A DNA stretch of 29,568 nt from a virus (taxonomy: Duplodnaviria; Heunggongvirae; Uroviricota; Caudoviricetes), in IMG/VR virus record IMGVR_UViG_2537562190_000016; one strand, 5' to 3'. Position numbers: made by a program. Shown piece by piece: positions 24,001 through 27,000 of the stretch (the first letter of the stretch is position 1; each line of letters opens with the position of its first letter).

Positions 24001-27000
24001 ATCCTGCAGCGTACCGGGATCGACGTGAGAGCTGTCGAACAGGGGGATGATGCGTGGCACAAATTACGGCTCGGCGTCATCACAGCTTCAGAAGTTCATA
24101 ACGTAATAGCAAAACCCCGCTCCGGAAAAAAGTGGCCTGACATGAAAATGTCCTACTTCCACACCCTGCTTGCTGAGGTTTGCACCGGTGTGGCTCCGGA
24201 AGTTAACGCTAAAGCGCTGGCCTGGGGAAAACAGTACGAGAACGACGCCAGAGCCCTGTTTGAGTTCACTTCCGGCGTGAATGTTACTGAATCACCGATC
24301 ATCTATCGCGACGAAAGTATGCGTACCGCCTGCTCTCCAGATGGTTTATGCAGTGACGGCAACGGCCTTGAACTGAAATGCCCGTTTACCTCCCGGGATT
24401 TCATGAAGTTCCGGCTCGGTGGTTTCGAGGCCATAAAGTCAGCTTACATGGCCCAGGTGCAGTACAGCATGTGGGTGACGCGAAAAGATGCCTGGTACTT
24501 TGCCAACTATGACCCGCGTATGAAGCGTGAAGGACTGCATTATGTCGTGGTTGAGCGGGATGAAAAGTACATGGCGGGTTTTGACGAGATGGTGCCGGAG
24601 TTCATCGAAAAAATGGACGAGGCACTGGCTGAAATTGGTTTTGTATTTGGGGAGCAATGGCGATGAAGCATCCTCACGATAATATCCGGGTAGGTGCGAT
24701 CACTTTCGTCTACTCCGTTACAAAGCGAGGCTGGGTATTTCCCGACCTTTCTGTTATCCAAAATCCACTGAAAGCCCAGCGGCTGGCTGAGGAGATAAAT
24801 AATAAACGAGGGGCTGTATGCACAAAGCATCTCCTGTTGAGTTAAGAACGAGCATTGAGATGGCACATAGCCTTGCTCAAATTGGAGTCAGGTTTGTGCC
24901 AATACCAGTAGAAACAGACGAAGAATTTCATACGTTAGCCACATCCCTTTCACAAAAGCTGGAAATGATGGTGGCGAAAGCAGAAGCAGATGAGAGAGAC
25001 CAGGTATGACAACCACTGAATGCATTTTTCTGGCAGCGGGCTTCATATTCTGTGTGCTTATGCTTGCCGACATGGGGCTTGTTCAGTGACACCTCAGCAA
25101 GAAAACGCCCTTCGCAGCATTGCCCGTCAGGCTAATTCTGAAATCAAAAAAGCCAGACAGCAGTTTCCGGATAAAAACGTCGATGACATTTGCCGTAGCG
25201 TACTGAAGAAGCACCGCGAAACGGTAACGCTGATGGGATTCACACCGACTCATTTAAGCCTGGCGATCGGCATGTTAAACGGCGTCTTTAAGGAACGGTG
25301 AGCATGAAAAGCAAAATCATCAGGGAGCTACAGGCTCCTTTTTTATTGTTCGCATTCACCCTCAAGCGTATTAACCAACAATTCAGGGATTAATGGAAGA
25401 TGGCAGACATCATTGATTCAGCATCAGAAATTGAAGAATTACAGCGCAACACAGCAATAAAAATGCGCCGCCTGAACCACCAGGCTATATCTGCCACTCA
25501 TTGTTGTGAGTGTGGCGATCCCATAGATGAGCGAAGACGCCTGGCCGTTCAGGGTTGTCGGACTTGTGCAAGTTGCCAGGAGGATCTGGAACTTATCAGT
25601 AAACAGAGAGGTTCGAAGTGAGCGAAATTAACTAGAAGCCAAAGATAAAATCATCGCTGAGCAGGAGAAAATCGCTAACGGAGAAAAGACAGTAAGTCAG
25701 TATATGAAAACCGCATGATATCATCAGATAAAAATCGATCGTAAAGCGAAATATTAATACCAGAATAAACGAGTCGAGGTAAATTATATTACCTCGATAA
25801 ATTAACTAAAACTTGCCCGCTATATACTATCTCATTCAGTATCATCACGCGCGGTCTGTGCATATGTTACTACCGCACCTAATGTATTAATTTTCTTTTC
25901 AACATAGATAATATTATCGTACTCATAATTGCCATACGGATAGCAAATGCGAATATTCTCATGTAGATCGGGGTCATCCACCTCAGCTCCAGAACAACTT
26001 TTTGAACTACCGGAAGTATACCGATACGGTGCAACATAAGACGATGTCTCTCCAGGCAAAAAATAAGTTAGTGTTGTAAGGGGTATAATCAGAAAAAATC
26101 CAGCAAATATGCACATCCCTGCATAAACCTTAAGGTATGCTGACAGACTCTTCCAGCCGCTTTGTTTTACTATCCCCTTCTTAACCCAAAACAGAGATAA
26201 CAGAAAAGCTATTCCCATGCTAAACAGAATGTAATAGTGGGATATACTCTGATTAAGAAACGTGACCCTGTAAATATCTGCCCGCCACCAGAAGAAAAGG
26301 AAAATAAAGATCAGGCCTGAAACTGTCATGCAAATCAAATAAGGATACGAATCTTTTTTCATGTTTAGCGTCCATAAAATTTTTCCTGCCCCGGACAAAT
26401 TTACCATCCATTTTTTGCGCAGAAAATAGCTCATTACTTACTGCACAATAATACACAAAATTGCGTAAATTTTTTGCATGGATTTTAGCTCTTTCAGCCG
26501 ACGTTTAAGGGGTAAATAGCATTTCCTAAAAGCAACTGCACCAACCCAACAGAATGAGCTACCGCTTACGTTGAGAGCAAAAAAGTGTATAGCAGCAATG
26601 AACAGCATCCTCGCACTGACGAGGATTTCTTTTATCTGAACTCGCTACGGCGGGTTTTGTTTTATGGAGATGATAAATGCACTTCCGAGTCACAGGTGAA
26701 TGGAATGGAGAACCATTCAACAGAGTTATCGAAGCAGAGAACATCAATGACTGCTATGACCACTGGATGATATGGGCGCAGATAGCACATGCAGACATAA
26801 CCAATATTCGAATTGAAGAACTGAAAGAACACCAAGCCGCCTGATGGCGGCTTTTTCTTGCGTGTAATTGCGGAGACTTTGCGATGTACTTGACACTTCA
26901 GGAGTGGAACGCACGCCAGCGACGCCCAAGAAGCCTTGAAACAGTTCGTCGATGGGTGCGCGAATGCAGGATATTCCCTCCTCCGGTTAAGGATGGAAGA

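Follow-up and report, generated by a model that had tools for sequence, protein, structure and literature searches.

A single-gene membrane-protein cassette in the exo-xis slot of a phage-434-type prophage, with relatives in the P2 anti-phage hotspot: a possible superinfection-exclusion factor

Several small proteins of resident phages, among them Imm and Sp of T4 and gp15 of HK97, keep incoming DNA out of the cell by a block at the inner membrane or in the periplasm. A comparable small protein of a resident prophage, DicB, stops the entry of lambda and 434 DNA at ManYZ in the inner membrane, and inner-membrane components such as ManYZ are engaged by the tape-measure proteins of siphophages and the ejection proteins of podophages (PMC6832061). 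Proteins of the SieA type likewise act at a site at the inner membrane and periplasm (PMC10883804). Anti-phage genes also gather at particular loci of temperate phages: the gpA-gpQ locus, which holds old and tin in P2, is such a hotspot (Rousset et al. 2022, PMC9122126), and the catalogue of its contents (Table S5B) lists as system #4 a protein described by '3 TM' and no Pfam family, found in 470 of 18,150 loci (PMC9122126). In this paper we analyse a relative of system #4, an opposite-strand membrane-protein gene in a 29,568-nucleotide stretch of Caudoviricetes DNA (IMG/VR record IMGVR_UViG_2537562190_000016; hereafter the window). This stretch represents the right arm of a prophage of the phage 434 type that is integrated at the lambda attachment site. 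We tentatively propose, at a confidence well short of an even chance, that its product is a superinfection-exclusion or other anti-phage factor that the lysogen expresses and that works from the periplasmic side of the inner membrane.

The 181-aa (amino acid) protein of system #4 aligns with the window protein at 52% identity over 168 residues (E 3e-57). A second match, to PHROG 1416 (unknown function, 90-position profile; E 2e-50), covers only the C-terminal 88 residues, i.e. 113-200 in the numbering of a 200-aa reading frame; the PHROGs scan otherwise gave only the non-significant PHROG 19046, and C-terminal-only gene calls occur among the matches (e.g. P0086, 96 aa). A family of only 61 clusters emerged when 1.84 billion representatives at 50% identity were searched exhaustively with a HMMER profile of a 20-sequence alignment. 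The 12 species genomes recovered are Enterobacteriaceae save one mis-binned contig, while the matches in Serratia and Pantoea stem from a plasmid search. The initial annotation could assign no family, and indeed neither Pfam nor NCBIfam has a usable match (Pfam gives only the non-significant DUF6057) and PADLOC-DB v2.0.0 yields no defence family at E <= 10; judged by its sequence relationships, however, the protein is a member of a definable, if unnamed, family, represented by PHROG 1416 for the C-terminal domain and by system #4. Outside this family, no PDB sequence matched the family profile below E 0.49, Foldseek found nothing in BFVD at E <= 0.001, and Rfam had no match in 25300-27200. A 3074-aa protein (P0124), whose nine weak repeat matches to profile positions 122-158 (the C..C barrel region) reach an overall E of 9e-7, was set aside as a repeat-driven artefact. 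The mis-binned contig (L020; JARKOR010000073.1, 3561 bp), filed under a 'Candidatus Nanosynbacter' metagenome-assembled genome, encodes a protein 99% identical to the E. coli prophage gene and is almost certainly a binning contaminant.

The gene itself is already on record. Its phage 434 counterpart is CPT_434_36, a 'putative membrane protein' (OL657226), called 'ORF-22+' in the older partial entry M60848; ECs_0804 of prophage Sp3 in O157:H7 Sakai is the same gene (198 of 200 residues identical), as is the RefSeq entry WP_000120063.1. These entries carry only the labels 'putative membrane protein' or 'hypothetical protein' and start codons that give 188 or 200 aa, where our comparison favours 176. 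The 434 genome announcement gives the gene no function (PMC9119081), and no characterisation of it was found in the literature on mEp332, ECs0804, exo-xis hotspots and exclusion by phage 434. Of 5426 complete E. coli genomes, 905 contain 80% or more of window positions 25700-26700.

The initial annotation described a 200-aa polytopic membrane protein. The mechanical open reading frame (ORF; 25832..26434, minus strand, 200 aa) is present and its polytopic nature stands, but the length does not. Met25 of this frame (MKKDSYPY...) is the start in all non-E. coli homologues (Salmonella, Klebsiella, Enterobacter, Cedecea and Citrobacter; 42-78% identity), every one of which lacks the preceding 24 codons, and it forms an invariant column of the alignment. 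The N-terminal extensions of the E. coli variants P0022 and P0027 are frameshifted and unrelated, and the Salmonella cassette has ATG-TAG where the upstream ATG stands. For these reasons the product is most likely 176 aa long; the annotated starts, which differ between PGAP (200 aa), OL657226 (188 aa) and some other records (176 aa), are in the two longer cases rejected because of the Met25 start in homologues and the Salmonella ATG-TAG, and probably represent over-extensions. Eight nucleotides ahead of Met25 lies a Shine-Dalgarno-like GGA, at a place where the homologues have GGAG, GGGG, GGGC or GGAA. The ratio of nonsynonymous to synonymous substitution rates (dN/dS) against three homologues is 0.08-0.14 (Nei-Gojobori), with synonymous sites near saturation, and a value of about 0.1 marks a genuine protein-coding gene under purifying selection. 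A 56-aa ORF directly upstream (26438..26608, minus strand), recorded in phage 434 as CPT_434_35, 'putative membrane protein', was considered as a partner gene and rejected, since it is absent from the P2 cassettes and from the PGAP annotation. Its start codon falls within the tL4 hairpin, at the junction with lambda homology, its six copies differ by only two polymorphisms, both nonsynonymous, and it probably does not represent a gene.

By Kyte-Doolittle hydropathy the protein has three hydrophobic segments of at least 19 residues (31-50, 66-86 and 103-125 in the 200-aa numbering), and in 20 homologues the cores of the first and third transmembrane (TM) helices are free of charged residues. 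Positive charge is concentrated in the 6-residue N-terminus (about two K/R) and in loop 2 (on average four K/R and less than one D/E across the 20 homologues), and the C-terminal domain of the window protein is net negative (6 K+R vs 12 D+E). This domain contains exactly two cysteines in 20 of 20 homologues, Cys123 and Cys140 in the 176-aa numbering of the window protein. As periplasmic domains typically have conserved pairs of cysteines, and as the charges follow the positive-inside rule, we infer an N-in/C-out topology, in which the N-terminus and loop 2 would be cytoplasmic and the C-terminal domain, with one disulfide, would lie on the periplasmic face. AlphaFold2 (AF2) models the full-length protein (predicted local distance difference test, pLDDT, 86) as three long helices, a 3-residue linker and a five-stranded beta-barrel, and models the C-terminal domain alone with five strands at pLDDT 91.3. 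Given so short a linker after the helices, the barrel would have to sit right on the outer face of the inner membrane. It is also the most conserved part of the protein (mean conservation 0.72 vs about 0.5 for TM helices 2 and 3); the 20-sequence alignment has 30 invariant columns, and the invariant motifs of the barrel are C-S-G-A, I-C-Y-P-x-G-x-Y and K-x-x-N-x-x-G. The small soluble C-terminal domain noted in the initial annotation is therefore present, although as a predicted periplasmic domain and not as a cytoplasmic tail, and the topology prediction and the profile and structure searches suggested there gave three TM helices, N-in/C-out, and no match to a known non-defence membrane protein.

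The gene stands in a well-delimited insert. The right arm runs in the order cI, N, IS3-family insertions, gam, bet, exo, orf60a to orf73, cassette, ORF55, xis, int and host ybhC, and blastn homology to lambda over 24600-25633 and 26607-27300 leaves a gap at 25634..26606. As the initial annotation had it, an AT-rich opposite-strand gene (GC content 38-39%) thus occupies the place between orf73 and xis where lambda carries ea22 and ea8.5, here replaced by 973 bp. A 1007-nt stretch including the cassette (25634-26640) is 100% identical to classical phage 434 (OL657226), and the insert is found in only 5 of 320 phage records that match a 1301-base query of flanks plus insert. GC is 38-39% both in the ORF and in 25622-26650, and 35-41% over 25650-26550, whereas the window as a whole has 47.5% and the neighbouring early region (20000-25600) 50%; the GC skew switches sign over the cassette region, as expected of an opposite-strand gene. 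An ORF scan found no plus-strand ORF of at least 40 aa within the cassette, whose sole coding capacity is the minus-strand gene. Terminator-like hairpins bound its upstream edge, that at 26607-26626 scoring as a terminator on both strands and being followed by a second at 26638-26657. The cassette consists of extra DNA between phage genes, has a deviant base composition and carries its own predicted terminator, the marks of a moron in the sense of Juhala and Hendrix; it resembles an autonomous moron whose single gene, flanked by orf73 and tL4, runs opposite to the pL operon. The coordinates of all features are collected in Table 1.

Table 1. Features of the cassette, its gene and product, and the flanking region (coordinates in the window)
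Feature	Coordinates	Strand	Basis or remark
Most likely real coding sequence, 176 aa + stop, start at Met25 of the 200-aa ORF	25832..26362	-	homologue starts; dN/dS; Shine-Dalgarno-like site
24-codon N-terminal extension of the 200-aa ORF (also the PGAP call); probably untranslated leader and promoter DNA	26363..26434	-	
TM helix 1 (predicted), residues 7-26 (176-aa numbering)	26285..26344	-	hydropathy; AF2 helix 5-33; no K, R, D or E in 20 of 20 homologues
TM helix 2 (predicted), residues 42-61 (176-aa numbering)	26180..26239	-	hydropathy, AF2, homologue charges
TM helix 3 (predicted), residues 79-101 (176-aa numbering)	26060..26128	-	hydropathy, AF2, homologue charges
C-terminal 75-aa five-stranded beta-barrel, predicted periplasmic, two invariant Cys	25835..26059	-	AF2, alignment, PHROG 1416
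Terminator-like hairpin, 35 nt past the stop codon	25774..25797	-	terminator scan, folding
Candidate extended -10 element TGgTAAATT	26398..26406	-	inference from conserved TGnTAAnTT block; missed by strict sigma-70 scan
Three tandem 10-bp repeats ATTTACGCAA / TTTTGTGTAT / TATTGTGCAG, TTGTGCA-type; putative regulator binding site	26441..26470	-	conserved in L003, L004, L033
Cassette (moron), 973 bp	25634..26606		blastn vs lambda; 100% phage 434 identity; GC 35-41%
tL4 and second terminator-like hairpin, upstream edge of cassette	26607..26657	+	M60848 t-L4 at equivalent position; hairpin scan
orf73, TraR/DksA-type zinc-finger protein, left flank	25400..25621	+	last pL-strand gene ahead of the cassette
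ORF55, right flank	26677..26844	+	
xis, after ORF55	26884..27102	+	
int, after xis	27080..28150	+	

Candidate signals for independent transcription lie at both ends of the gene. The convergent hairpin reported earlier at its 3' end is a perfect 9-bp inverted repeat (25774-25782 / 25789-25797), terminator-like on the minus strand with the tail CTCGTTTATT, and folds as RNA at -17.7 kcal/mol with a modest z of -2.25. Upstream, a TGnTAAnTT block lies 36-44 nt ahead of the ATG in the window, in the Salmonella and E. coli P2 cassettes and in the chromosomal copies of Cedecea and Citrobacter; its window version is a plausible extended -10 element, from which transcription would start near 26391, a point that both of the longer annotated reading frames already include. 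In all, about 120 bp upstream of the ATG are conserved between the unrelated lambdoid and P2-like prophages, so that the gene appears to travel with its own 5' region. The tandem repeats, 79-108 nt upstream of Met25 and retained in two to three units in the Salmonella and E. coli P2-hotspot cassettes, may be the site of a regulator that recognises direct repeats. Read-through from pL would cross the whole gene in the antisense direction, so that its expression should be unhindered while pL is repressed and opposed after induction.

The genomic contexts of the relatives fall into prophage and chromosomal ones. Relatives with 52-78% identity occupy the hotspot of system #4, where P0044 and P0048 of Salmonella and P0039 of E. 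coli are flanked by gpQ, the portal gene, and gpA of P2-like prophages. Four of the Salmonella P2-like prophages (L003, L005, L009 and L010; ~5227-5888) have two small same-strand ORFs of 81 and 119 aa, without Pfam match, between the portal gene and the three-TM gene; both are absent from L004 and L033, L011 has the 81-aa ORF only, and being missing from some cassettes they are not obligatory partners. Seven Enterobacter species (L006, L022-L025, L029 and L030; gene at ~6001-6510 in each) possess a syntenic chromosomal orthologue directly upstream of a convergent HAMP-GGDEF gene; in four of the seven the orthologue starts only 16 nt past a LysR-family gene. Single-gene copies occur at other chromosomal sites in Klebsiella, Cedecea/Pseudescherichia, Serratia and Citrobacter, and on a megaplasmid in Pantoea; in the contexts inspected, no defence or toxin gene stands beside the Klebsiella, Cedecea, Serratia, Citrobacter or Pantoea copies.

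Exclusion is suggested by the presence of the gene in accessory slots of two unrelated temperate-phage lineages, of which the P2 slot is validated as a defence hotspot, and by the only conserved soluble part, which is predicted to face the periplasm close against the inner membrane. The initial proposal that a gene in such a hotspot encodes an exclusion or abortive-infection factor gains from the relatives in the P2 old/tin locus, while its abortive-infection half is unlikely and no known defence family matches. Under the exclusion hypothesis, the gene would be transcribed in the lysogen, with pL repressed, from its own weak promoter of the extended -10 type about 30 nt upstream of Met25, and convergent pL transcription would oppose it after induction. 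The membrane-proximal periplasmic domain would interfere with the entry of heterologous phage genomes at the inner membrane, its target being either an inner-membrane entry receptor or the tape-measure or ejection proteins of the incoming phage. The way of working would resemble that of P22 SieA, T4 Imm and HK97 gp15, without relatedness to them.

A number of observations weigh against this hypothesis. In classical immunity tests lambda plates on 434 lysogens, so that exclusion cannot strongly target lambda, and the gene probably does not exclude this phage. The lack of a PADLOC match means that it is not a system known by 2023, those from functional selections included. A scan for strict sigma-70 consensus promoters found none upstream of the gene, and in RNA-seq data of EDL933 two candidate locus tags, neither unambiguously mappable to the gene, reach at most 12 reads per kilobase per million mapped reads (PMC4048457). 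The sequence of system #4 is absent from the tables of cloned and tested systems of Rousset et al. (PMC9122126), and genes outside defence are also numerous in the P2 hotspot, where an antiviral role is predicted for only 15-32% of the unknown proteins (PMC13586616). Finally, the Enterobacter orthologues, which are stable and vertically inherited, diverge at about the rate of their GGDEF neighbour (63-97% vs 80-98% identity), and this ordinary rate, together with the stable synteny, looks more like a cellular function than like an arms-race gene. A bolder form of the hypothesis, which we hold to be less likely than not, makes the gene the founding member of a new family of single-gene inner-membrane superinfection-exclusion factors, shared by two unrelated temperate-phage lineages (in the exo-xis slot of lambdoid phages and the old/tin hotspot of P2) and fixed chromosomally in Enterobacter and relatives, which would block genome entry of a defined set of phages from the periplasmic face by means of a disulfide-bonded beta-barrel.

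Nearly as likely as exclusion is a role as a lysogenic-conversion or host-fitness envelope protein outside defence, that is, a chromosomal inner-membrane protein of Enterobacterales captured by temperate phages and serving E. coli and Salmonella, for example, in stress tolerance or as an orphan immunity protein against a bacteriocin or type VI secretion system effector acting in the periplasm or membrane. The syntenic, ordinarily evolving Enterobacter copies fit such a role, as do the single-gene copies that stand amid metabolic genes, not in defence islands, in Klebsiella, Cedecea, Serratia and on the Pantoea megaplasmid. Colicin M immunity offers a precedent of a disulfide-bonded periplasmic domain on a membrane anchor. 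The same prophage type carries other morons of host physiology, namely lpxR in the window and an NleC-like protease annotated in phage 434, and morons of the virulence type set phages 21 and 434 apart from lambda (Feiss et al., PMC9119081). On the other hand, no toxin, Rhs, VgrG or bacteriocin gene was found beside any copy examined, the change of chromosomal site from genus to genus speaks for a horizontally mobile gene and not an ancient housekeeping one, and the family is enriched in two independent prophage accessory slots, including the validated hotspot.

Much less probable is that the protein is an abortive-infection or membrane-damaging effector, acting as a latent pore or as a depolarising toxin by which the infected cell would die. 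Defence systems often use small polytopic membrane proteins as effectors (PMC9122126), and a single gene within a defence hotspot would suit this role. Its weakness lies in the predicted architecture, since the most conserved part would face the periplasm and no cytoplasmic domain longer than about 15 residues is available to sense infection; moreover, the gene is alone in the lambdoid cassette, its stable chromosomal presence in Enterobacter argues against toxicity, and no PADLOC effector family matches.

About as improbable, or slightly more so, is a role in phage development, in which a CII-type promoter would act at the establishment of lysogeny and the protein or its antisense transcript would modulate expression of the pL operon (xis/int) or membrane events. 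Within the tandem repeats, 96 nt upstream of Met25, lies TTGT-N6-TTGT (26445-26458, minus strand), followed 13 nt downstream by AGCTAT, with the spacing of pRE; CII-activated promoters of lambda (pRE, pI, paQ) have TTGC-N6-TTGC repeats on either side of -35 and a weak -10 about 13 nt further downstream. OL657226 annotates a CII-consensus match here, which some P2 cassettes retain, and over its full length the transcript would be complementary to RNA that reads through from pL. Yet the degenerate CII motif (TTGY-N6-TTGY) occurs in the window at chance level (11 found vs 7.5 expected), and the genuine CII sites of the window, pRE at 16924 and pI at 26858, are both TTGC/TTGC and not TTGT/TTGT, for which reasons we give the match little weight. 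CII is absent from P2-like prophages that share this upstream DNA, a 10-bp shift of the match in L033 breaks the fixed geometry, and the protein is under strong purifying selection in non-phage contexts. An extension of the exclusion hypothesis, by which the upstream TTGTGCA repeats would make the gene inducible by the CII-type activator of an incoming lambdoid phage, is very improbable.

The last alternative, a decaying remnant or chance ORF in AT-rich DNA, to which the disagreement of the annotated starts (200, 188 and 176 aa) and the weak Shine-Dalgarno sequence of the E. coli copy might point, is effectively refuted by a dN/dS of about 0.1 over saturated synonymous divergence, by the 61 clusters of the profile search and the 30 invariant columns of its 20-sequence query alignment, and by the confident AF2 model.

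Three further observations concern the prophage around the cassette. About 420 bp with ORF114, which in phage 434 lie between ORF55 and xis, are missing from the window at ~26836..26856, and the end-points of this deletion fall within a terminator hairpin (26834-26853). Transposase ORFs of the IS3 family (rve, HTH_Tnp_1, HTH_21) occupy 20922..22772 on the minus strand, between the N region and gam, with one apparently complete and one partial copy, so that the pL operon is interrupted upstream of the exo-xis region in this strain. A gene for LpxR, a lipid A 3'-O-deacylase (10915..11874, plus strand), is a further moron of the same prophage and is also present in phage 434 and Sakai Sp3.

The gene is of interest by its distribution alone, being present in about one sixth of complete E. 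coli genomes, in classical phage 434 and in the Sp3/CP-933K prophage of O157:H7, while its relatives rank as the fourth most common 'system' in the catalogue of the P2 defence hotspot. It is found in databases and in one published catalogue, yet it has neither a name nor a Pfam family. If the exclusion hypothesis is true, a new protein family for a known kind of job would join the small set that blocks phage genome entry at the inner membrane, with a bearing on the prediction of host range for phage therapy of E. coli, Salmonella and Enterobacter. Otherwise the gene would still encode an envelope protein that prophages have spread widely, and the function of such a protein would merit attention.

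Among known systems, the best functional analogue is P22 SieA, a single prophage-expressed gene with its own promoter, whose product is an inner-membrane protein of similar length (162-164 aa vs 176 aa) and likewise has three predicted TM helices; the window protein lies, with its three predicted TM helices, within the bounds of the SieA family in size and membrane topology (~160-200 aa, 3-4 TM helices). Homology to P22 SieA was rejected, however, as hhalign of the family profile gives a probability of 0.2% over 10 aligned columns. The conserved motif FxRYPxEAxxFNK of SieA (types A-C) is predicted to be cytoplasmic, whereas the conserved domain described here is predicted to be periplasmic, and in P22-like phages the place of SieA is between genes 16 and 9. 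T4 Imm and Sp, HK97 gp15 and DicB have, unlike our protein, one or two TM helices or are cytoplasmic; none of them was matched, the PHROGs scan giving only PHROG 1416 and the non-significant PHROG 19046. Short NfeD proteins of the YbbJ/YuaF type combine three TM helices with a C-terminal OB-fold barrel. The window protein is similar to them in gross architecture and length, and a protein with an 'NfeD-like C-terminal domain' is among the weak BFVD matches (E 0.29), but it has no Pfam NfeD (PF01957) match and no SPFH partner gene in the contexts inspected. Closest of all is system #4 of the P2 hotspot, which shares the three TM helices, the CSGA...ICYPxGxY C-terminal domain and the organisation as a single-gene prophage accessory cassette, and differs in its place: system #4 is located in the gpA-gpQ hotspot of P2-like prophages, whereas the window copy occupies the exo-xis slot of a lambdoid (434) prophage, from orf73 to tL4.

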